The notes under the pieces were generated by a model, which did not search any database, had not been told where the DNA came from, and saw only the letters and a list, made by a program, of their open reading frames with translations. A program made the translations under genes and the position numbers. Positions 10,433 through 46,362 of a stretch of DNA of 52,202 nucleotides are shown here, piece after piece (the first letter of the stretch is position 1; every line of letters begins with the position of its first letter). The DNA lies in assembly GCA_028524385.1 (NCBI GenBank), contig GCA_028524385.1_3661.2, one strand, 5' to 3'. Origin of the DNA: a phage.

Positions 10433-10696
10433 TCAGAAACCCTCTAAAAAGCTCTTGTAGAAAACAATCTCAGTATCCACACCAGTCACAATCTTGTCGT
10501 TCCTGATTTCATCGGTAAGATAGGTGTCAAAACGCAGAACCTGTGTGGTGTTGTCACACATCCACTCAGCTGTGACCATTGCGAAAATCTTAGCATCTTC
10601 ATTATCTGGTGTGAATGTTACCACCTCACCGCACTTAAACTTTTCGATAGGCTGAGTGTTAGCTTTCGGTTCTGCGATAGTGATTTTTGTGGTCAT
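10433..10696 (-). CDS. small protein, tandem paralog
   Basis: 87 aa; motif KCGEVVTF aligns with PCGTVVSC / APGTVVMF of neighbours. Confidence 0.45.
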   Translation of the reverse strand: MTTKITIAEPKANTQPIEKFKCGEVVTFTPDNEDAKIFAMVTAEWMCDNTTQVLRFDTYLTDEIRNDKIVTGVDTEIVFYKSFLEGF

Positions 10697-10959
10697 TATT
10701 CTCCTCCTTCTTTTGAATAGCTTGTCTCTCCAAGGATGGTAATTTTGGTGTCAAGCTCTGTAACTTTCATGTTTGGCGGCAGATCGTACAACTCATTATT
10801 TTCTAAATCGAACCCCCACACACAATGTTCTCCTGTTTTGACAATCATAACTATGTTTTGAATACCGTCTCCGTCGCAACTTACCACGGTCCCACACGGA
10901 AAACTGTCTGCACGCTTTTTGTTCTTCACTTTAGAATTGAATACAATGCTAGTAGCCAT
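10696..10959 (-). CDS. small protein, tandem paralog
   Basis: 87 aa; MAT...KK...GTVV...GFDL...LP...E.D..I.ILGE pattern shared with 10959..11222. Confidence 0.45.
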   Translation of the reverse strand: MATSIVFNSKVKNKKRADSFPCGTVVSCDGDGIQNIVMIVKTGEHCVWGFDLENNELYDLPPNMKVTELDTKITILGETSYSKEGGE

Positions 10960-11222
10960 TATTGTTCCTCCACCATAACTTCGCCAAGAATTTCTATGCA
11001 GGCATCCATTTCTGTAACAACCAAACTGTGAGGTAGTTCTACAAACACCTTTCTGAACAGGTCAAATACCCCAACATATATGTTTGCAGGATGTGATTTT
11101 ACAACAAGTGCTGTATTCACATCCCCAAGTTCATCAACAAACATCACCACAGTGCCTGGAGCTACTGAGGACAGATACTTCTTAGTTTTACGGTTTGATG
11201 CAAATTTTAACTCTGTTGCCAT
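10959..11222 (-). CDS. small protein, tandem paralog
   Basis: 87 aa; same length and conserved residues as 10696..10959; ATGA start/stop overlap. Confidence 0.45.
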   Translation of the reverse strand: MATELKFASNRKTKKYLSSVAPGTVVMFVDELGDVNTALVVKSHPANIYVGVFDLFRKVFVELPHSLVVTEMDACIEILGEVMVEEQ

Positions 11223-11237
11223 AAATAACCTCCTCTC

Positions 11238-12719
11238 TTACTTAGCGTACTCGATTAATTCCACAGTTTTCCCAAAGCTCGGGATATAATTTTTATTATA
11301 CCCTTCGGTTAGAACCCATAAAGTATCGTACTTTTTCCACTTGTTGTCAACAGCCTTTTGTTCAAAGTTATGCTCAAAGTATAGGTCGGTCAGGACGATG
11401 ACATCTTTTGCATTCGGTATGTTGGCATCCAGATACTCGAACACGCAAGCAGCTGTTGTGCCCCATGTTGAGTGGACCTCATAGTTAATCATCTCGTCTA
11501 TGTTGCCGCGAGTGTATACTTTAACCTCTCCAACCTCAGTTGACCAACAGAACATTGTAACCTTAAACTCTTTATACAGATTGCACAATCCGGTGATTTC
11601 ATTGAACATTTTCTTTAAAGTTCTTTGAGAGATCGAGCCAGAAACGTCTAAAGCCACCACAATATCTATAGTGTTTTCCGGATTACGACCAGGAACAATA
11701 ACGTGCTGGTTCTTGTTTATAGCCCCAACTTTTCGCATTGTGCTGGTCAAAGACCCAGATCGGCGACCAGGTTTTCTGTAGGTCAGTTCAGCCTTTCGTT
11801 TAGACAACATGCGTTGCTTAATGATGTCTATATAGTTGATTACAGGCTTACCTCTGTTCTTGACAAACTCACGCACCGCCTCGGGGCAACGGCCTCCGGA
11901 CGCTTGCATTGCTGCCTCCAGCATATCACCAGAGTCCTGCATGGCCTGATCTTTATCAGATTGGCTGATTACAGGTTGTGGCTGATCATACCCCATAGCT
12001 TTTCCAAGATCATCACTGGTGCCACCGTTCCCACTCATGTGATCATCTGTTTGTCGCTTATCACCTTGAGAGTTCTCACCTTTACCGTTCTTACTTTTAC
12101 CGTTATTCTGATCTCTTTGCTTATCAAGAACTGCATAAACGTTCTCAGCAATCCATCCATGAAACTTCATATCGCAGTAGCAGCTGGCTAAGAAGCCAAA
12201 AGGCTTACCTTTCACGAACGTAGTGCTTTTCCCCTTCGGGAAGAAAACACAAGGAGGCTTGCTAAAGTCCACCACAAGTCCTGTGTTGATAACGTGATCA
12301 CAAGCAATATTGAACAGTTCCGGCTCAAAGCTTTTACCACGGACCAGGTGATCACAGATAATATGCCCCACCTCATGCGACAGAAGAAAGGCCACCTCTT
12401 TCACAGATTTGGGGGAATAGAAAACCTCAGCCATCTCAAACTGCTCGTCAGTTAGAGAAGCCTTAAGAATAGCCTTACGTTCATCAGCCAACCCCATAAT
12501 GAACTCAGGACTGTAATAGATGCGTTTATGGTCGGTTGCCATGGTGGAGCACCATGTATGGTTTTCTACGAACTGCAATCCTGACAGCAGTGTGCCATAA
12601 AACGGCAGCTTTTCAAGGAGATACATACGTGCAGCCTGCAACATTCTCAGGGCATCATCTTTTTGTGAGGCAATGATTTCTGAACTTCTGATATCCATTA
12701 AAACTCCAGAAGGGGCCAT
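11238..12719 (-). CDS. vWA-domain protein with HExxH metallopeptidase-like motif
   Basis: HEVGHIICDH (HExxH) in N-terminal half; MIDAS-type DxSxS motif VVALDVSGSIS in C-terminal half; 493 aa. Confidence 0.55.
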   Translation of the reverse strand: MAPSGVLMDIRSSEIIASQKDDALRMLQAARMYLLEKLPFYGTLLSGLQFVENHTWCSTMATDHKRIYYSPEFIMGLADERKAILKASLTDEQFEMAEVFYSPKSVKEVAFLLSHEVGHIICDHLVRGKSFEPELFNIACDHVINTGLVVDFSKPPCVFFPKGKSTTFVKGKPFGFLASCYCDMKFHGWIAENVYAVLDKQRDQNNGKSKNGKGENSQGDKRQTDDHMSGNGGTSDDLGKAMGYDQPQPVISQSDKDQAMQDSGDMLEAAMQASGGRCPEAVREFVKNRGKPVINYIDIIKQRMLSKRKAELTYRKPGRRSGSLTSTMRKVGAINKNQHVIVPGRNPENTIDIVVALDVSGSISQRTLKKMFNEITGLCNLYKEFKVTMFCWSTEVGEVKVYTRGNIDEMINYEVHSTWGTTAACVFEYLDANIPNAKDVIVLTDLYFEHNFEQKAVDNKWKKYDTLWVLTEGYNKNYIPSFGKTVELIEYAK

Positions 12720-12731
12720 TGGCCCCTGTCA

Positions 12732-13775
12732 TTATTTAACGTGTTTGAAAATACCTGCCAACTCGGTCATTGTCATGCGGGTGGTCTTCATAAGATCTGT
12801 CATAGCTTTCTCCATAATTGGAGATACTACCATAAAGTTTCCTTTAGTGAAACCTTTATTCCAGTCGGTCACCAACAGTGGTTTAAGTCCAGCTCCAAGA
12901 CGTTCACCAGTTAAAGCACAGCATTTGCGAATATACGAACTCTTAAATTGGCTGAACGACAGATCAACTTTCATACCTACATCGTAGAACGTTTGACAAT
13001 AGAAAGTGTAAGCTTTGGCAATCTCAACATCATCAGGTAGTGCAGGAACCTCTTCTGTAAGCTCCTCTTCGACCTCCTGAGTCTCTTTTTCCTCTTCATG
13101 CACCTGTTGCGTCATTTCTTCAATCTCTTCTGTGATAGGCTCGTTTACAATGTCGGAAATGTGCTTCTTGGGTGCACGATAAGTAACTTTAGACATCGGT
13201 AGCATATCTTCCTCCTCTTCTTCGTCAAAGAGTGCTAGTTTATCCTCTTCCGTTCCATATTGCAAGATGAAATCTTCAAAAGTATAATCACCTTTCAATT
13301 TCTCCATACGCTCTTCGCTCAGGTGGAGCATCATCTGCTGGACAATTTTTCGATCAGTTTCGTCTTTAATCAAGACTGCAGTCTTTTTATCTACCAGACA
13401 GTCCTTTAGAGAGTTGCATCTCAATCCCACCACACAACAGTTATCAACCGCATAAGGACCTTCATCATCTATCCGCTCCAGAGATGGGTAGAAAGGATTT
13501 CCCAGCCCGTTTTCATCTGTGTGCATGTCAAAAGGTATAAGGGTATAGTCGCATACTCCATCTCCTAAAAGTTTTTTACCAAATAGGAGGTATTCTTCCC
13601 ATGACAGGTCGAACTCTATATCTCGTTTCCGTGCATTATTCTGTTTGCGTCTATATTTTTTGAGCAAGCGCTCTAACTCTTCTGGTGTATAATATTTTTC
13701 AAGATTCATGAGTCGTCTCTCGTGCTCTGTAAGTGAAGAAATCGTATCAATTGTCTCAACAGATGTCAACATCAA
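12732..13775 (-). CDS. HNH-endonuclease-like protein fused to an unrelated C-terminal segment
   Basis: N-terminal ...ARKRDIEFDLSWEEY...CDYT...SLERIDDEGPYAVDNCCVVGLRCNSLK resembles HNH-type homing endonucleases; internal MSKVTYRA at residue 194 is encoded by a 29-bp sequence repeated inverted at 15035. Confidence 0.45.
   Translation of the reverse strand: MMLTSVETIDTISSLTEHERRLMNLEKYYTPEELERLLKKYRRKQNNARKRDIEFDLSWEEYLLFGKKLLGDGVCDYTLIPFDMHTDENGLGNPFYPSLERIDDEGPYAVDNCCVVGLRCNSLKDCLVDKKTAVLIKDETDRKIVQQMMLHLSEERMEKLKGDYTFEDFILQYGTEEDKLALFDEEEEEDMLPMSKVTYRAPKKHISDIVNEPITEEIEEMTQQVHEEEKETQEVEEELTEEVPALPDDVEIAKAYTFYCQTFYDVGMKVDLSFSQFKSSYIRKCCALTGERLGAGLKPLLVTDWNKGFTKGNFMVVSPIMEKAMTDLMKTTRMTMTELAGIFKHVK
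13173..13201. repeat. 29-bp perfect inverted repeat, left copy
   Basis: tgcacgataagtaactttagacatcggta is the exact reverse complement of 15035..15063. Confidence 0.8.
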
Positions 13776-13782
13776 AAACGTG

Positions 13783-13811
13783 TTGACTTTACTCTAACTC
13801 CACAATATAGT
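13783..13811 (+). promoter_or_regulatory. sigma70-type promoter at strand-switch region
   Basis: TTGACT-17 nt-TATAGT, about 40 nt upstream of ATG 13852 (SD aggag). Confidence 0.55.
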
Positions 13812-13851
13812 GCACCCATTCGAAAGAAAACTAACATAGGAGCACTTACTT

Positions 13852-14751
13852 ATGGCAAATCTTAACAGTTTTAGTACGCGGTGGAAACAGGACATAACAA
13901 CCAATCTTTCAGCTGGGGACATCCTTTCTGCAATTTACGAGGCTTTAGATGATAAAGCTACTTCAAAAGCGGTTTGTACCAACCCACTAATTCCTGTAGT
14001 GATGAAGGTTATTGAGCGCAGATTGGTATCTGGGTCTGATAAGTGGACATATTTAGATAATGAAGGACACACCTATTCCAATGGGTACGTCGATATAAAA
14101 GTAGAATACGCGGTATCATACCGCCGGAGCGGTTCTGTAACTTTCAACTTCTCTGGAGGTTTTCGATCTCTGGCTACCTCACCTTTTGTTTCCTCAGAGG
14201 AGAAGTATGAGCTACCATTTCTTTGGATGATGGCTAACGCGACAGGAAAAACCCCCGTTAGCATCCGAGTAAAATACAACTACAACGGATCTAGTAAGAT
14301 CTATGCCGAAAGTGTCTCAGCAAGTTTTTATTTTGTGATGGGGGATGGAATCCTCAAACATATAAAGATGTGCGATATGCATGATGTTATAAATGAAGTG
14401 ACTGATAAGAATGTTCTAGTGAAAGACCTCAACAATTTTTATACACCCGGAGACTATTACGTCAGCCGTCCACTGTGCATCTTTAATGCCGCACACCCTC
14501 TAGGTGAGTATTTGATCGCCAATAGCGATATTGCCAATAACCGCTTCGAGGTAGCAAGAGTTCAGAATGAGGTATTGACATCTTGCAAGAGCGGTGATAA
14601 GTTTACCGAAGAAGAGATGGGTGTTTTAGAAATGATGGGATATAAGTGTAGCCTTTGGGTAGATGAGGTGTTTAATGATTGCATCTATGGACAGGATATT
14701 TACCCATTAAAGAAGTATACTGATACAAGTTTAATTTATGCGAGGGTTTGA
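13852..14751 (+). CDS. hypothetical protein
   Basis: 299-aa ORF, first gene of rightward block, SD aggag. Confidence 0.5.
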   Translation: MANLNSFSTRWKQDITTNLSAGDILSAIYEALDDKATSKAVCTNPLIPVVMKVIERRLVSGSDKWTYLDNEGHTYSNGYVDIKVEYAVSYRRSGSVTFNFSGGFRSLATSPFVSSEEKYELPFLWMMANATGKTPVSIRVKYNYNGSSKIYAESVSASFYFVMGDGILKHIKMCDMHDVINEVTDKNVLVKDLNNFYTPGDYYVSRPLCIFNAAHPLGEYLIANSDIANNRFEVARVQNEVLTSCKSGDKFTEEEMGVLEMMGYKCSLWVDEVFNDCIYGQDIYPLKKYTDTSLIYARV

Positions 14752-14753
14752 CT

Positions 14754-15026
14754 ATGATGAAGGCATGTGGTAATGTATATTACGTCGGTGAACATGTTCA
14801 GGCAGACAGTGTGTGGAAATCTATTAAGTCCACCACTGACGATGCCTTTCTGAGTGGACTATGTTTCCCCAATCCGGGAGACATCCTCCCCCATCCTGGA
14901 GATTTTGTTGTCAACAAGATGGACGGTTATACCGTGTGCCTGATGGTTGAAAAAATCTTTTTAGACACTAGACACAATCACCGTCTTGTGTTAAAATTTC
15001 AAGAATGTAAAATGACAATTGCCTAA
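14754..15026 (+). CDS. hypothetical protein
   Basis: Track ORF 14748..15026; first ATG with SD gaggg at 14754. Confidence 0.4.
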   Translation: MMKACGNVYYVGEHVQADSVWKSIKSTTDDAFLSGLCFPNPGDILPHPGDFVVNKMDGYTVCLMVEKIFLDTRHNHRLVLKFQECKMTIA

Positions 15027-15034
15027 GGAGACCT

Positions 15035-15063
15035 TACCGATGTCTAAAGTTACTTATCGTGCA
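15035..15063. repeat. 29-bp perfect inverted repeat, right copy
   Basis: taccgatgtctaaagttacttatcgtgca; covers start codon and first 8 codons (MSKVTYRA) of gene 15040..15396. Confidence 0.8.
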
Positions 15064-15396
15064 GCTATTTACTGCAATGAACACCCAATCAATAATGATG
15101 GTCACTGCCTTTTTAAAGAAAATCAATTGGGCTGTATTGTCCTCCCTGATGAAGGGGAAGGTTATCTGATTGCATTGACAGGGTTTGAACCTGAGGCTCT
15201 GGAAGCCAATCTGGACTACCTGGTAGAAGAGGGTGCTGCAGACCTGGTTGCCAATGGCCTCTCCATAAGCCTTGACGAAGTAGAGCGCTTCATGGGCAAT
15301 TACCGTGTAGTGCGTGAGTTTACTATCGAGGTGGAAACTCCCGAGTGGAGTAGCACTGAAACTAATGCCGAAGAAAAAGAAGAGGAGGTAGAATAA
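15040..15396 (+). CDS. hypothetical acidic protein
   Basis: ATG 15040 with SD aaggag 9 nt upstream (track ORF starts at upstream TTG 15019); begins MSKVTYRA. Confidence 0.45.
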   Translation: MSKVTYRAAIYCNEHPINNDGHCLFKENQLGCIVLPDEGEGYLIALTGFEPEALEANLDYLVEEGAADLVANGLSISLDEVERFMGNYRVVREFTIEVETPEWSSTETNAEEKEEEVE

Positions 15397-15653
15397 TGAA
15401 AATACAGATCTTGACTAATGCCGAGAAGATGTTTATTGAAGATACACCTTTTGAAGCTGGTGAGCTACAGTTCGTTTATTTTGTTGACTTAGATAAGGTG
15501 TTTCCTGCACTGAATCTAGGTTTGGATGAAGTTCCTCATAAGGTTTTGTGCCAAGTTGTTCGTGCCTTAGCGGCAGAGGGGGAGTTCCACACCCTTCAAG
15601 ATGTCCAGACCTACGGGTATCTTGAACTACAACGAGAAGAAGAGGTGGACTGA
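15396..15653 (+). CDS. hypothetical protein
   Basis: 85-aa ORF, start overlaps upstream stop. Confidence 0.4.
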   Translation: MKIQILTNAEKMFIEDTPFEAGELQFVYFVDLDKVFPALNLGLDEVPHKVLCQVVRALAAEGEFHTLQDVQTYGYLELQREEEVD

Positions 15654-15655
15654 TA

Positions 15656-16036
15656 ATGGCTCAGTGGAAGACAACAGTTGACCTTCATGATCAGTGGTTA
15701 GGACGCATCACTGAAGACGGGAAGCTAGTGGAGTGGGACAATAAGCATGTTAGCGAGTTGGCAAGTATTGTGGCTGGCAAGTTACGCTCCAAGTTCCCTG
15801 AACAACTGGATCCTGATAGTTCAAAGTTCGATCCTGAGTTGGAGGATGTTGTATACTACTTCGATACCGTGGATGACTACGATGCGTGGTTTGCAGCACG
15901 GGAGCTTTACCCACAAGGCTCTGCTATGCGCCAGATGGAAGAAGATTATCCTCCGTGTGAGCAATTCAATAGTGCAATGACTTGCCTCTATGATTGGGCA
16001 GATAAGAACCTTGTCTGGATTCGGACTGCATTTTAG
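15656..16036 (+). CDS. hypothetical protein
   Basis: 126-aa ORF. Confidence 0.4.
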   Translation: MAQWKTTVDLHDQWLGRITEDGKLVEWDNKHVSELASIVAGKLRSKFPEQLDPDSSKFDPELEDVVYYFDTVDDYDAWFAARELYPQGSAMRQMEEDYPPCEQFNSAMTCLYDWADKNLVWIRTAF

Positions 16037-16080: not shown

Positions 16081-16350
16081 ATGTTATACCAGCAATATGA
16101 ACTTCGTGCAGAAAAAGAGTTAAATTTTGACAAAGATATTCACAGATATTATTATGGGAAAGTTAGAGGGCAAGCAAGAAAGTGTACTCCAACACTCTTT
16201 TATGCCAGCAGACGACTAGCGCCAGAAGAGGCAACAGCAGAAAGGGTTGCGTACAACTGGAGAGTCACGTATGATATTGACAGATTCGATGTGATATCTG
16301 TTTTGGAAAACTTTGAAAACACTTACACACAAGTAGAGGACTTTTACTAA
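16081..16350 (+). CDS. hypothetical protein
   Basis: 89-aa ORF; stop overlaps next start (TAATG). Confidence 0.4.
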   Translation: MLYQQYELRAEKELNFDKDIHRYYYGKVRGQARKCTPTLFYASRRLAPEEATAERVAYNWRVTYDIDRFDVISVLENFENTYTQVEDFY

Positions 16351-17534
16351 TGTCAAGAAACGTATTCGAAAGTGGTCAAATCACTGTCCGTGAGTTGCCA
16401 GCTATTATTCAGTTTGCCCAACGTCATAGCCGATCTGTCCTAATTTTGGGACCAATGGGTGTGGGTAAAAGCCAGGTGATGAAGCAGATCGCTGATAATA
16501 TGTTCGGTGAGCGAGATGACAACCTTGTTGACGTGCGACTGTCAGATAAAGATCCTGCCGACTTATCTGGGCTACCTATCCCTGTAGAAGCGGATGGAAC
16601 TACACGTACAGTGTTTGCAATTCCAGAATTTTGGCCTGCGGATCCTGACTGGAGCGGAATTATCTTTCTGGATGAGCTCACTCATGCAGATAACTACCTG
16701 CAAAAGGTTGCAATGCAAATTATGCTTGACCACAAGTGCGGCACCTATGCATTCCCTAAGGGTTCTGTTTTTGTGGCTGCGGGTAACCGTTCTACAGATG
16801 GTGCGGTTCTTTCGGCGCTCGAAGCCCCTCTGGCTAACCGTTTTATCATTGTAGAGGTTACAAGCAATGCAGAGGTGTTTATTGAGGACTACGCATTCCT
16901 CAACGGGGTTCACTCCTCTGTAATTGGGTATCTGAAAAGAGTTCCATCAGCTATTGATAATTATGAGGCTATGGCTGAGATTAATTGTCCATCTTTTGCC
17001 ACACCACGATCTTGGGTTGCTGCATCTGACATCTTGCACGATTTTGACAGCGGTATTATTTCTGACGCTATGGCCCGTGTTCTTCTGCAAGGTGCTATTG
17101 GTCACACTGCAGCGGTAGAGATCTGGACATACCACACCAAGAAACGCAATTTACCGGAAATCGGTCGGATTATGGCAGGTGGCTGCAAAGAATACGTAGG
17201 TCCTAAGCAGCCAGACATTTTGTGGATTCTTGGATCTGAAGGTTGTATCGCTATTCGTAATATGATGGAAAATGCAAGTATCTCAGACGAAGATCTTGTC
17301 AGCTGCGTGGCAAACTTCCTCGATTTCCTTTGGGAAAACTTCAAGGACGAGAACCGAGATTTTGTATTCTCAGTCTTTATGGCGATGATGAAACCTAATG
17401 CCTTAGGAAATGCCTTGCTTATAGGTAAAGGGCGTGACAAGATTGTTGCTCAGCTGATCAAAGCATACCCAAACCTGATGAAGATTGTAAAAGAGTTTGG
17501 TGAAGAGTTTAGCGCCATTTTGGCTAAAGCTTAA
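16350..17534 (+). CDS. AAA+ ATPase, MoxR-like
   Basis: Walker A LILGPMGVGKSQV, Walker B IIFLDELTHA, sensor region VFVAAGNRSTDGAVLSALEAPLANRF typical of MoxR/CbbQ-type AAA+. Confidence 0.6.
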   Translation: MSRNVFESGQITVRELPAIIQFAQRHSRSVLILGPMGVGKSQVMKQIADNMFGERDDNLVDVRLSDKDPADLSGLPIPVEADGTTRTVFAIPEFWPADPDWSGIIFLDELTHADNYLQKVAMQIMLDHKCGTYAFPKGSVFVAAGNRSTDGAVLSALEAPLANRFIIVEVTSNAEVFIEDYAFLNGVHSSVIGYLKRVPSAIDNYEAMAEINCPSFATPRSWVAASDILHDFDSGIISDAMARVLLQGAIGHTAAVEIWTYHTKKRNLPEIGRIMAGGCKEYVGPKQPDILWILGSEGCIAIRNMMENASISDEDLVSCVANFLDFLWENFKDENRDFVFSVFMAMMKPNALGNALLIGKGRDKIVAQLIKAYPNLMKIVKEFGEEFSAILAKA

Positions 17535-39554: not shown

Positions 39555-39865
39555 TATTTTAAGTTATCAGGTTGCCAGAGATCAGGAGGATTTCTAAAAT
39601 GGATTTCCTCCTTTTGATATTTTACCTGCCATGATATTTTAAAATCCTTAGAAAATCAGAAAATGGATCGAAAACTAAAATGGATTTTTCAGAGTAGGCG
39701 CGACAAGCTGAATCACTCATCCTATCGTTTGCACCATATTCCAGACCACCATTACAGATTTCCCGCACATGCTTACATCTCGCTACTAGAACTTCCTCCA
39801 CTCACCCTTGACCTTTTATAGCAATAATCCAACCACTATCTTGAAGTTGCGGTGCAGCTTTCCAG

Positions 39866-39887
39866 GTACTCGATCTGTTTTTCGTTT
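39866..39887. repeat. 22-bp direct repeat, copy 1
   Basis: gtactcgatctgtttttcgttt repeated exactly at 39931..39952. Confidence 0.75.
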
Positions 39888-39930
39888 CAAATATTGAATT
39901 TTCTGAAAATTTTTCTCGATAAATTTCTCA

Positions 39931-39952
39931 GTACTCGATCTGTTTTTCGTTT
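39931..39952. repeat. 22-bp direct repeat, copy 2
   Basis: Exact copy of 39866..39887; surrounded by recurring aaaatggat and ttttctgRaaat words. Confidence 0.75.
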
Positions 39953-40188
39953 TCTGAATCGGATTTTCTGGAAATCGTTCCGGATCTCGACCTGAAATTT
40001 TTGGGGACGAAATCGATTTTTCGTTTTCAGAAATGGATTTTTAAAATTTGTATATGGAAATATTTTAGGAGGTATTATTTTATATAGAATTGTCACGGTA
40101 GGTAATTAGCATGCTAACTAAATTTATGAAATGCGAAAAGTTCTCATTTAGAACTTTGAATGATAATCATTCTCGTTTGCAGAATAAC

Positions 40189-41537: not shown

Positions 41538-41933
41538 ATGAATAAGAACGTACGCCGCATCATGAACGAACTGGCAAACGATGAAAAAATTATTGATATG
41601 CATTTGGTCAACATTTGCCGCCGTTGTGTAACATATAACAACCGCGCCGCAAAAGCGCGTGAGATGAACGCAAAAGGCACCTTAAAGCCCTTTCAGGTGG
41701 TTGTAAAATCTATAACTAATGCAGCAGGCCAGGCGCATGACCACAACAACGAGAGCACTAATATTGATCCGTCTTACGTAATGAAACGGATCCGGACTTG
41801 CAAGAATAAAGAGCAGGTGTATAACGTCATAGATTGGCTGGACTCCATGGGCGATGTGGTTTATAATAGGTTTTCTGCAGCTATCGAGATCCAGCTTGAC
41901 AGACTGGACGGGAAAGTACTGAAAACTTACTAA
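41538..41933 (+). CDS. hypothetical protein
   Basis: 131-aa ORF with SD aaaggaaaaag. Confidence 0.45.
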   Translation: MNKNVRRIMNELANDEKIIDMHLVNICRRCVTYNNRAAKAREMNAKGTLKPFQVVVKSITNAAGQAHDHNNESTNIDPSYVMKRIRTCKNKEQVYNVIDWLDSMGDVVYNRFSAAIEIQLDRLDGKVLKTY

Positions 41934-41980
41934 ATTTATTTTTAGATGGCCTTGACTCCAGGGCCATCAATAAAGTAAAC
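41934..41980. repeat. conserved 48-nt intergenic hairpin element, copy 1
   Basis: atttatttttaGATGGCCTTGactcCAGGGCCATCaataaagtaaac directly after stop codon; 10-bp stem, 4-nt loop, embedded TTGACT. Confidence 0.7.
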
Positions 41981-42013
41981 TAATCCTAGTTAAGCTAAAA
42001 AGGAGGCTTGAAG

Positions 42014-42211: not shown

Positions 42212-42553
42212 ATGACTACTATGACCGCCGCAGAAAAAGCCATGCAGATCGCCGCGCTGAAAAAACAGATCGCAGACCTTGAGAATAAGATCGATAACTT
42301 TGAAATCGACGAGGACAAGTACGACGAAAACTATGATGAATGGTTAGACGAGATCTACGGCGAAATTATGATCGGAAACATTTCTTTTCTTCCATCGCGT
42401 ATCCTCAAGGAGCTAGATCCTATCGCTTACCGCTGCGGATTTAGCGACTACATCGACAGCCTGGATATTGAGGACGATGAAGAATACCAGGAATTGCAGA
42501 CAGAGCTTGAGGAAGTGAAAGAAGAGCTTTCAGAACTGGAAGAAAACGAATAA
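42212..42553 (+). CDS. acidic hypothetical protein
   Basis: 113-aa ORF with SD aaaggag; very acidic C-terminal half. Confidence 0.45.
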   Translation: MTTMTAAEKAMQIAALKKQIADLENKIDNFEIDEDKYDENYDEWLDEIYGEIMIGNISFLPSRILKELDPIAYRCGFSDYIDSLDIEDDEEYQELQTELEEVKEELSELEENE

Positions 42554-42600
42554 ATTTATTTTTAGATGGCCTTGACTCCAGGGCCATCAATAAAGTAAAC
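42554..42600. repeat. conserved 48-nt intergenic hairpin element, copy 2
   Basis: Identical to copy 1, again starting right after a stop codon. Confidence 0.7.
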
Positions 42601-42639
42601 TTTACACTGTTAACACTGAACTAATGAGGAGTTAAAACC

Positions 42640-42885
42640 ATGGCAGCACTAATTACCAAATACTATGCGCCCACCAACACCAAAAGCGCCCGGATCATGG
42701 TAAAAGGCTTCGGACGTAAAAAGGTTTACACCTGGGATTATTCCCTAGACATGGAAGACAACTACACCAACGCGATGACCGATTTTATTAACGAGCTGAA
42801 TACGCGGATCTTAACAAATTATAAAATTACCGACATTGCTTATATAGGTGAAGGCGGGATCTGTTTTGTAGGCATTGTGAAATAG
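42640..42885 (+). CDS. hypothetical protein
   Basis: 81-aa ORF with SD gaggag. Confidence 0.45.
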   Translation: MAALITKYYAPTNTKSARIMVKGFGRKKVYTWDYSLDMEDNYTNAMTDFINELNTRILTNYKITDIAYIGEGGICFVGIVK

Positions 42886-42886
42886 T

Positions 42887-42936
42887 TATTTTTTCGGTGG
42901 TCCTGGCTGCAGGGCCATCTATAAAGATAATTTACT
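42887..42936. repeat. variant copy of intergenic hairpin element
   Basis: ttattttttcGGTGGTCCTGgctgCAGGGCCATCtataaag; 5' arm differs from canonical copies but still pairs with the identical 3' arm (G-U wobbles); -35-like TTGACT lost. Confidence 0.55.
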
Positions 42937-46068: not shown

Positions 46069-46269
46069 ATGAGCAAGAATATTCGCGTTATCAATTTTAA
46101 AAAAGATGAAAAACTGGCTGTTCTGGTCGATGGTCAAGAAATCTTCAAGGGCGATTATGAAGATCATCAAACGGCGATTAGTATCACTCGCGTGATTGGT
46201 TACCATAATTTTTACCCCCAAGGCGCTGAGGCAGCGGTTAAACGAATCAAAGAGATTGTAGGCCTGTAA
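46069..46269 (+). CDS. hypothetical protein
   Basis: 66-aa ORF with SD gaggag, preceded by TATGGATAAT promoter-like box and 5' hairpin. Confidence 0.45.
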   Translation: MSKNIRVINFKKDEKLAVLVDGQEIFKGDYEDHQTAISITRVIGYHNFYPQGAEAAVKRIKEIVGL

Positions 46270-46317
46270 AATTTATTTTTAGATGGCCTTGACTCCAGGG
46301 CCATCAATAAAGTAAAT
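46270..46317. repeat. conserved 48-nt intergenic hairpin element, copy 3
   Basis: Identical core to copies at 41934 and 42554, again directly after a stop codon. Confidence 0.7.
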
Positions 46318-46362
46318 TTAAACCCTGTTAAAATACCACGCAGTTAACAAGGAGTGATAGAC

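Follow-up and report, generated by a model that had tools for sequence, protein, structure and literature searches.

A 29-nt inverted repeat duplicating a gene start in an rV5-like vequintavirus is probably the scar of a templated multinucleotide mutation

The window analysed here, the whole stretch of 52,202 nucleotides, is from an rV5-like Vequintavirus. ORF8 and ORF11 are transcribed divergently at the locus under study, and the start region of the former and the interior of the latter hold the two arms of a perfect inverted repeat. The features are as follows.

12732..13709, minus strand: ORF11, Srd-like and early, 325 aa from its probable start, the open frame reaching a TTG at 13775
13741..13769, minus strand: sigma-70-type promoter-like site of ORF11 (TTGACA-17-TACGAT with TG), equal to the annotated P11 of rV5
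13783..13811, plus strand: sigma-70-type promoter-like site of the rightward unit (TTGACT-17-TATAGT)
13852..14751, plus strand: ORF10, 299 aa, within the segment between the arms
14754..15026, plus strand: ORF9, 90 aa, within the segment between the arms
15040..15396, plus strand: ORF8, 118 aa, its start region the apparent template and its SD (AAGGAG, 15025-15030) outside the repeat
15035..15063, plus strand: right arm, the donor, made of 5 nt of ORF8 leader followed directly by the ATG and codons 2-8 (MSKVTYRA)
13173..13201, minus strand: left arm, the acceptor and derived copy, within the linker of ORF11

The repeat is as originally predicted: TACCGATGTCTAAAGTTACTTATCGTGCA at 15035-15063 (plus strand) recurs as its exact reverse complement at 13173-13201, perfect over 29 nt, with a spacer of 1833 nt between the arms. 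No exact inverted repeat in the window is longer, the runner-up being ~19-20 nt, and the number of exact 29-nt inverted pairs expected in 52 kb is 6.6 × 10−9. The window and the loci examined contain no further copy of the 29-mer, even with 7 mismatches allowed. Within the left arm, MSKVTYRA is read in frame as part of the leftward ORF11, corresponding to residues 194-201 of the 347-aa frame opened by the TTG, as had been stated, or to residues 172-179 counted from the ATG at 13709. Outside these eight residues the ORF8 and ORF11 proteins show no similarity, in line with the claim that the downstream proteins are otherwise unrelated. Neither arm, folded with its surroundings as a 101-nt piece, had a significant z-score (-0.41 and -1.03), and a shared RNA structure or operator at the arms was rejected on these values.

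Because the TTG at 13775 sits upstream of the promoter-like site at 13769-13741, the equivalent of P11, the likely start of ORF11 is the ATG at 13709, which would give the 325 aa seen in its GenBank relatives. The protein is built of two conserved domains with an acidic, poorly conserved linker between them, and this linker is the least conserved and length-variable part of the family. The N-terminal domain matches PHROGs labelled 'decoy of host sigma70' and 'Srd anti-sigma factor', and gp11 of rV5 has been described as a probable Srd homologue (PMC3606486). Like rV5 gp11, ORF11 is the first gene of the leftward early unit; it differs from T4 Srd and Srd-like proteins by an additional conserved C-terminal domain and the acidic linker. 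The likeness to Srd concerns the gene ORF11 and not the repeat. The label 'HNH endonuclease', akin to the 'HNH-like' of the original prediction, comes from PHROG 3118 and RefSeq only, and weaker PHROG matches point to 'endonuclease VII' and 'Srd' families. ORF11 matched no Pfam family at E ≤ 0.1, nothing relevant in NCBIfam and no PDB sequence at E ≤ 1, leaving the HNH label a matter of PHROG and RefSeq naming without curated support. A BLASTP comparison of the two domains with each other gave no significant match, and an AlphaFold2 model built on a 10-sequence alignment was too poor for use (mean pLDDT 48.7).

We next compared carriers and non-carriers of the ORF11 arm among the 118 GenBank records that matched a 101-nt probe. 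The arm is present in 28 of them and missing in 90, and the distribution over the 101 nt is bimodal: the 28 records are at least 98% identical to the probe and the 90 are at most 78% identical, with no intermediates. It is missing in rV5, FV3, HMD-6, Aya, NHEP1, JeffSchatz and HeinrichReichert, as well as in six IMG/VR loci. Whether or not they carry the ORF11 arm, the Vequintavirus relatives examined all keep the ORF8 arm, its changes being occasional and confined to synonymous or leader positions. At the ORF11 site, the 90 non-carriers and the nearest outgroups (62-68% amino-acid identity) have a longer linker sequence. The non-carrier site reads ...ACCGATG-25 nt-ATCGTGCA... and encodes MQDFKNFMADRA, the consensus being ACC(G/A)ATG-25 nt-A(T/C)CGTG(C/G)A. 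Since the nearest outgroups also have the long form (MTPAQELREFMEKR), comparison of the alleles shows the long form to be ancestral and the carrier allele derived, with the ORF8 start as donor. The reverse polarity, in which ORF11 is the donor or the short allele is ancestral, was rejected on the outgroup linker and on the outgroup ORF8 homologue, which is without MSKVTYRA. Thus, the suggestion that part of a translation-initiation region was copied held up, as a lineage-specific event seen in 28 of 118 records against a conserved ORF8; the SD of ORF8 was left out of the copied piece.

Alignment of the two alleles resolves the left arm into three parts.

13194..13200, minus strand: upstream microhomology anchor ACCGATG, already in non-carrier ORF11 alleles
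13181..13193, minus strand: templated core of 13 nt, TCTAAAGTTACTT on the coding strand
13173..13180, minus strand: downstream microhomology anchor ATCGTGCA, already in rV5-type non-carrier alleles

Microhomologies of 7 and 8 nt with the ORF8 start therefore pre-exist in non-carrier ORF11. The upstream one is ACCGATG in rV5 and NHEP1 and ACCAATG in the others, and the rV5-type downstream anchor is ATCGTGCAGC, that is ATCGTGCA(GC), with 10 nt in common with ORF8. By expectation, 52 kb should hold 0.03 anchor pairs of this kind, and these two places were the only ones at which it was found. Between the anchors, TCTAAAGTTACTT stands in place of the ancestral 25 nt CAGGATTTTAAAAA(T/C)TTCATGGCT(G/A), a net change of -12 nt, or four codons, which preserves the frame. 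Read as reverse complement, the new bases match the unchanged ORF8 donor exactly (13-nt core plus anchors), the probability of a 13-nt match at a fixed site being ~1.5 × 10−8, and ~13-21 nt of the variable linker were overwritten. The carriers also have private flanking substitutions that ORF8 does not template (T>C at -6, GCAGCC>GCACCC and AAC>AAG), for which no second template was found in the window. These need either separate mutations or error-prone synthesis, and FoSTeS/MMBIR-type repair synthesis, if error-prone, could explain them.

Taken together, the repeat is very probably the scar of a single templated multinucleotide mutation that perfected an imperfect inverted repeat. The polarity from donor to acceptor, the anchors and the preserved frame can all be read from the aligned alleles, and from them we infer the molecular pathway, a template switch or an ectopic micro-conversion. 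Specifically, in an ancestor of the carriers, which form one sub-lineage of the rV5-like phages of E. coli, synthesis through the ORF11 linker would have left its template at ACCGATG, copied at least 13 nt from the ORF8 start, 1.8 kb off and on the other strand, and gone back to ORF11 as template where the second microhomology, ATCGTGCA, lies. The route could have been a template switch in replication or short-tract ectopic gene conversion in break repair. The outcome would be the exchange of 25 nt for 13 nt, the conversion of an imperfect 7 + 8-nt inverted repeat to a perfect 29-nt one and, in the protein, the replacement of MQDFKNFMADRA by MSKVTYRA in a linker of variable length and low conservation, which may have tolerated it. 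Given divergent transcription of the two genes, anchors that share a codon phase and a net change of -12 nt, the patch came to stand in sense and in frame.

All carriers have in common a haplotype block around the arm, which is found in different genomic backgrounds.

13000..13390, minus strand: carrier haplotype block (ORF11 linker region)

Within the block, carriers have 0-3 differences per 100 nt, against 28-38 for all non-carriers in the 13100-13187 bin. The block was found in at least three backgrounds; in ECP32 and inoa it lies within FV3/NHEP1-like flanks. Ordinary homologous recombination would then have carried the allele into further vequintavirus backgrounds. The arms, meanwhile, changed separately: Alma has two changes in the ORF8 arm, the arms of ECP32 differ at two positions of the 5-nt leader part (TACCT vs TATCA), and the metagenomic carrier L018 has one change in the ORF11 arm. 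The unmatched one-arm changes in these three carriers indicate that nothing maintains the identity of the arms, and concerted evolution was rejected for the same reason. The sequences compared thus show mosaic spread and independent decay of the arms, and the repeat itself is most likely without function. Neutrality of the linker change is an assumption here; the allele occurs in about a quarter of the sequenced genomes and in more than one background (several in all), a distribution for which selection could equally be the reason.

Other origins of the repeat were weighed against templated copying. That the match arose by chance, by protein-level convergence or as an assembly artefact is favoured by nothing except the short length of the repeat, and we give it practically no weight. 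The expected number of such pairs given above is vanishingly small, and the same allele recurs in metagenomic assemblies and in 26 GenBank genomes that were sequenced independently. Identity extends over synonymous sites and the 5-nt non-coding leader; because all of these positions are identical, convergence at the protein level is ruled out. Hardly more credible is the origin that had been proposed, a recent fusion or homing event in which an HNH endonuclease gene was joined to a second gene with an ORF8-like start. It would account for a copied piece that opens with a start codon in mid-ORF, and PHROG 3118 and RefSeq do name ORF11 an 'HNH endonuclease', but every relative, and outgroups at 58-68% identity too, show a colinear N-terminal domain, linker and C-terminal domain. 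This build recurs in each of the 21 homologue clusters and at every locus, the shorter matches being frameshifts or truncations. The two-domain ORF11 is therefore ancestral and not the product of a gene fusion. Equally, ORF11 stands at the same locus in 118 of 118 records, and its presence in all relatives argues against a homing event, as does the lack of a match to any curated HNH model in Pfam, NCBIfam or the PDB.

Two further readings give the repeat a function. One is an adaptive gain, in which the copied ORF8 initiation context (AUG UCU AAA GUU...) created or strengthened an in-frame internal start in ORF11, so that the C-terminal domain would be made separately, possibly under a translational regulator common with ORF8. 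The original prediction had the in-frame start right and the length of its product off by one, 154 aa rather than 155, and the SD-like gaggagga that it placed upstream is indeed present, as the purine-rich GAGGAGGA at 13210-13217 on the coding strand. The identical 29 nt stand in sense in both mRNAs, no strong RNA structure lies across the site (z = -0.41) and the allele is present in several backgrounds. However, GAGGAGGA stops 13 nt short of the copied ATG, consists of ancestral Glu codons also found in non-carriers and is better placed for an ancestral upstream ATG at 13205-13203. An ATG at the copied position likewise pre-exists in non-carriers (MSPMQ...), and ORF8's own SD was not part of the copied tract. 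Three quarters of the relatives do without the allele, each arm has drifted on its own, with a K>E change among the copied codons, and the homologues yielded no protein made of the C-terminal domain alone. We regard the gain of an internal start as unlikely, if less so than the other alternatives. The second functional reading, also put forward originally, takes the arms as recombination sites that invert the 1.8-kb promoter-bearing segment between them. As the arms match perfectly in inverted orientation and share a codon phase, an inversion would keep both reading frames and both outward transcription units intact, joining the N-terminal domain of ORF11 to the body of ORF8 and placing the C-terminal domain of ORF11 behind the ribosome-binding site of ORF8. 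A length of 29 bp is about the lower limit for homologous recombination. Against this, all 116 full-length relatives are colinear, each as one BLAST piece, and split or multi-piece matches sought in 120 phage records were not found. The parental ORF11-side junction is present in all 28 carrier records and in the metagenomic carriers L017, L018 and L019, the 101-nt probe revealed no non-parental junction, and a junction-specific 26-mer gave no match in IMG/VR and a single one in metagenome contigs, in the parental configuration. Inversion isomers are thus absent from the consensus assemblies. There is no chimeric ORF11::ORF8 protein among the 21 homologue clusters, and no recombinase family was matched in the six neighbouring ORFs scanned. 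Moreover, the repeat is derived and decaying, and its left arm is missing in 90 of 118 records. Inversion as the role of the arms is accordingly very improbable, and we think it just as improbable that, in the carrier sub-lineage, the repeat supports low-frequency homologous inversion of this bidirectional-promoter cassette. If it did, the inverted isomer would stay fully transcribed with both arms in sense and in frame, yielding two new early proteins (a Srd-like N-domain joined to the ORF8 body and a free Srd-like C-domain) and population-level heterogeneity in host-takeover proteins.

Templated copying, our preferred reading, makes this locus a clean natural phage example of a templated multinucleotide mutation, in which donor, acceptor, ancestral state and both switch points are visible. 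It implies that a perfect repeat duplicating a gene start can arise without function, which calls for caution in genome scans, and that templated patches may rewrite protein linkers several residues at once. The local annotation is also mended, ORF11 being Srd-like without curated HNH support and probably starting at the ATG at 13709.

Among known systems, the G segment of Mu (Gin) and the C segment of P1 (Cin) are site-specific invertible phage segments. As in these, the inverted repeats here lie in coding sequence and inversion would swap protein parts in frame; unlike them, the locus has no recombinase among the neighbouring ORFs scanned and was seen in a second orientation in no genome, and the group does not conserve the repeat, whose arms are diverging. 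A closer likeness is to the Ripley model, in which the arms of a quasipalindrome or inverted repeat are homogenised by template switching. Such homogenisation produces multinucleotide changes in coding DNA (PMC8604942, PMC7202029), including the quasipalindrome-associated mutations of E. coli (PMC7202029). The features in common are a cluster of derived changes in one lineage by which an imperfect inverted repeat becomes perfect, new bases that are the reverse complement of an unchanged nearby donor, switch points at pre-existing microhomologies and the replacement of several adjacent amino acids. Short-range template switches on record span tens to hundreds of nucleotides (PMC7954356), and a survey of yeast coding genes covered spacers of ≤70 nt only, with arms of 7-16 nt (PMC8604942). 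In contrast, the spacer here is 1833 nt, beyond the short range of the classical template switch, the final arm is 29 nt, and the event brought a net 12-nt deletion and linked two different genes. The length of the spacer places it between classical quasipalindrome correction and kb-scale MMBIR-type switching. FoSTeS/MMBIR (Hastings et al. 2009, as cited in PMC7954356) and the template switches that occur in gene conversion, with a mutation rate reported to be much higher in homologous recombination than in replication (bioRxiv 10.1101/2023.08.09.552703), resemble the present case in a short templated insertion from a kb-distant, possibly inverted source through microhomologies of a few bases. 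Both models are usually invoked for large rearrangements or copy-number changes, whereas here 13 nt were patched in frame and nothing was rearranged. On balance, kb-scale microhomology-mediated switching or ectopic micro-conversion fits the locus better than the classical short-range mechanism.

The predicted 29-bp perfect inverted repeat, which duplicates a gene start, was confirmed by exact matching and by its coordinates: TACCGATGTCTAAAGTTACTTATCGTGCA at 15035-15063 (+) recurs as an exact reverse complement at 13173-13201, with a spacer of 1833 nt. No other exact inverted repeat of the 52-kb window is as long, and 6.6e-9 exact 29-nt inverted pairs are expected by chance. Judged by its sequence, the phage is a Vequintavirus of the rV5-like type. 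When 12500-15700 served as a 3.2-kb query, 120 phage records in GenBank matched with identities of 88-99.4%, LL12 being the best match. By rV5 numbering, the right-arm gene is gene 8, the leftward ORF is gene 11 (ORF11), and genes 10 and 9 lie between the arms.

15035-15063, + strand: right arm; last 5 nt of the leader, ATG and seven codons of the 118-aa ORF8
15040-15396, + strand: ORF8, 118 aa, rV5 gene 8
13173-13201, - strand: left arm; MSKVTYRA in frame within the leftward ORF ending at 12732
13769-13741, - strand: promoter-like site of ORF11, corresponding to the annotated P11 of rV5

The ORF8 and ORF11 proteins showed no similarity to each other beyond MSKVTYRA. The leftward ORF with MSKVTYRA in frame stands as originally described, but not its TTG start at 13775: because this TTG lies upstream of the P11-like site, ORF11 probably starts at the ATG at 13709 and has 325 aa, as annotated in relatives. 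Promoter-like sites in the intergenic region (13741-13811) point outward in both directions, which agrees with the report of bidirectional promoters in rV5 (PMC3606486).

The original prediction had read ORF11 as HNH-like, a reading that we could not substantiate: ORF11 had no Pfam family at E<=0.1, no PDB sequence match and, in NCBIfam, a sole irrelevant hit far below cut-off. The name stems from PHROG 3118 and RefSeq naming. PHROG hits covering the N-terminal domain are labelled 'decoy of host sigma70', 'Srd anti-sigma factor' and 'endonuclease VII', and rV5 gene 11 is considered a likely homologue of Srd (PMC3606486); an AlphaFold2 model (pLDDT 48.7) was too poor for a fold test. ORF12 (11238-12719, -) is by Pfam a DUF2201_N metallopeptidase and VWA-like protein, yet PHROG 1314 and RefSeq name it 'HNH endonuclease', and several GenBank records have 'anti-sigma factor'. 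The divergent early region carries a candidate partner on its other arm, a MoxR-type AAA ATPase (rV5 ORF4; 16350-17534, +) for which Pfam gave only weak AAA hits. ORF10 (13852-14751, +) is widely annotated 'putative alpha 1-3 fucosyltransferase', for which Pfam and NCBIfam gave no support; its sole match is to a PHROG with no assigned function. At 10433-11222 (-), three ORFs follow one another in tandem, each 264 nt long (87 aa), and stop and start codons overlap at their junctions; in sequence they look like diverged paralogues. Among the database records, sixteen entries titled 'Campylobacter phage' (MG0656xx, e.g. MG065635.1 and MG065655.1), of which 15 give Campylobacter jejuni as host, share 93-99% identity with rV5-like phages of E. 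coli over this region, and their host assignment looks doubtful.

The ORF8 arm was present in every relative examined, with few changes, either synonymous or in the leader. The ORF11 arm was absent from rV5, FV3, HMD-6, Aya, NHEP1, JeffSchatz, HeinrichReichert and 6/6 IMG/VR loci. With the ORF11 arm at its midpoint, a 101-nt probe matched 118 records, 28 of them (26 distinct genomes) at 98-100% and 90 at <=78%, with none intermediate. Non-carriers read …GATATGTCACC(G/A)ATG CAGGATTTTAAAAA(T/C)TTCATGGCT(G/A) ATCGTG(C/G)AGCCAAC… (protein MSPMQDFKNFMADRAAN) and carriers …GATATGCTACCGATG TCTAAAGTTACTT ATCGTGCACCCAAG… (protein MLPMSKVTYRAPK). ACCGATG and ATCGTGCA, both found at the ORF8 start, were thus already part of the ancestral allele; the second of these matches is ATCGTGCAGC in rV5. 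Between the anchors, 25 nt are replaced in carriers by exactly the 13 nt found between the same anchors at ORF8, a net change of -12 nt that therefore keeps the frame. The anchor pair occurs only at the ORF8 start and in the ORF11 linker, and shuffled sequences give 0.03 per 52 kb.

Outgroup contigs (ORF11 62-68% identical) also encode the two-domain protein, its linker being of the long form (…EEYMTPAQELREFMEKRAEKHIKDIV…), and their ORF8 homologue begins MKIVILRN, not MSKVTYRA. The ORF8 start is accordingly the donor, the derived acceptor being the ORF11 allele of the carriers, so that the predicted copying event is borne out as a templated 13-nt tract. The recent fusion of an HNH endonuclease to another gene, also proposed, is rejected, as N-domain, linker and C-domain are colinear throughout the ORF11 family; the linker is its only poorly conserved, length-variable part. 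Nor does a homing event fit, since ORF11 is found in every relative and thus shows no homing-type presence/absence polymorphism. Two non-carrier homologues (P0017 and P0021) are frameshifted inside the acidic linker, and hence indels, or else errors of sequencing and assembly, may arise easily in this GA-rich stretch.

Over a block of ~300-400 nt (about 13000-13390), carriers are near-identical and every non-carrier is strongly different. ECP32 and inoa have the carrier block inside FV3/NHEP1-like flanks, and JeffSchatz and HeinrichReichert an rV5-type block on a Murica-like background. Such mixed flanks indicate that the carrier allele moved between backgrounds by homologous recombination; its patchy distribution is therefore no evidence for recurrent origin.

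We found no sign that the repeat mediates the suggested 1.8-kb inversion. All full-length relatives (116/116) were colinear in a single BLAST piece, and every carrier record had the parental junction. A junction-specific 26-mer had no hit in IMG/VR; among metagenomic contigs it hit one, which was parental, as was the gene order of two further metagenomic/Logan carriers. No ORF11::ORF8 chimera occurred among 21 homologue clusters, partial hits being frameshifts or truncations. In-frame inversion at low frequency within carrier populations, the most novel of the remaining readings, is judged very improbable. Alma has two changes in the ORF8 arm, the arms of ECP32 differ in the leader part, and a metagenomic carrier locus has A>G (K>E) in the ORF11 arm with the ORF8 arm intact; this independent drift argues against a requirement for arm identity. 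RNA folding at each arm gave no significant structure, which counts against a shared RNA element. Translation from the copied ATG, whose product would have 154 rather than the predicted 155 aa, is unlikely and has no specific support. The SD-like GAGGAGGA is indeed present upstream (13210-13217, ending 13 nt before the copied ATG), but it consists of Glu codons also found in genomes lacking the repeat; both the ATG and this purine-rich run are ancestral, and the AAGGAG of ORF8 (15025-15030) falls outside the repeat and was not copied.

Other repeated elements were seen in the window. At the junctions 15377-15398, 15637-15658 and 16331-16352, a motif AAGAAGAGGAGG…TAATG recurs in which acidic C-terminal codons of a small early gene form the Shine-Dalgarno of the next, with stop/start overlap. 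A 65-74-nt unit stands in three tandem copies (74-76% identical) at 39856-40041. A 51-nt intergenic element, TAAATTTATTTTTAGATGGCCTTGACTCCAGGGCCATCAATAAAGTAAACT, has 3-4 copies, two of them 100% identical:

41931-41981: copy of the 51-nt element
42551-42601: copy of the 51-nt element
46268-46318: copy of the 51-nt element
42882-42932: 71% copy

It contains a hairpin (GATGGCC/GGCCATC) whose loop has a -35-like TTGACT; a -10-like TAAAGT follows. The element bears some resemblance to the promoter-early stem-loops known from T4-type phages. Nearly all surrounding ORFs are small (only 2 of >=150 aa in 39-50.6 kb).

Taken at the level of sequence, the event behind the repeat is best read as a templated patch of 13 nt, placed in frame in a linker that tolerates it. 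Because ORF8 and ORF11 are transcribed divergently, sequence copied in inverted orientation is in sense in either gene, and the shared codon phase of the anchors puts it in frame. Such a templated mutation would homogenise an imperfect inverted repeat, leaving a derived cluster that is the reverse complement of unchanged nearby sequence, bounded by pre-existing microhomologies. A few carrier-private substitutions beside the tract (T>C at -6, GCAGCC>GCACCC, AAC>AAG) have no ORF8 template, nor was another found in the window; they could reflect error-prone synthesis during the event or the private divergence that the carrier linker haplotype shows in general. Candidate routes would be template switching across the fork, a switch at microhomology in the course of break repair, or short-tract ectopic gene conversion. 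Events of this pattern have been attributed to template switching in replication or repair synthesis (PMC7202029, PMC8604942, PMC7954356). The kind of mutation is thus already known and this is a new example, whose main oddity is its span: classical short-range template switching covers tens to hundreds of nt, whereas the arms here are 1.8 kb apart.
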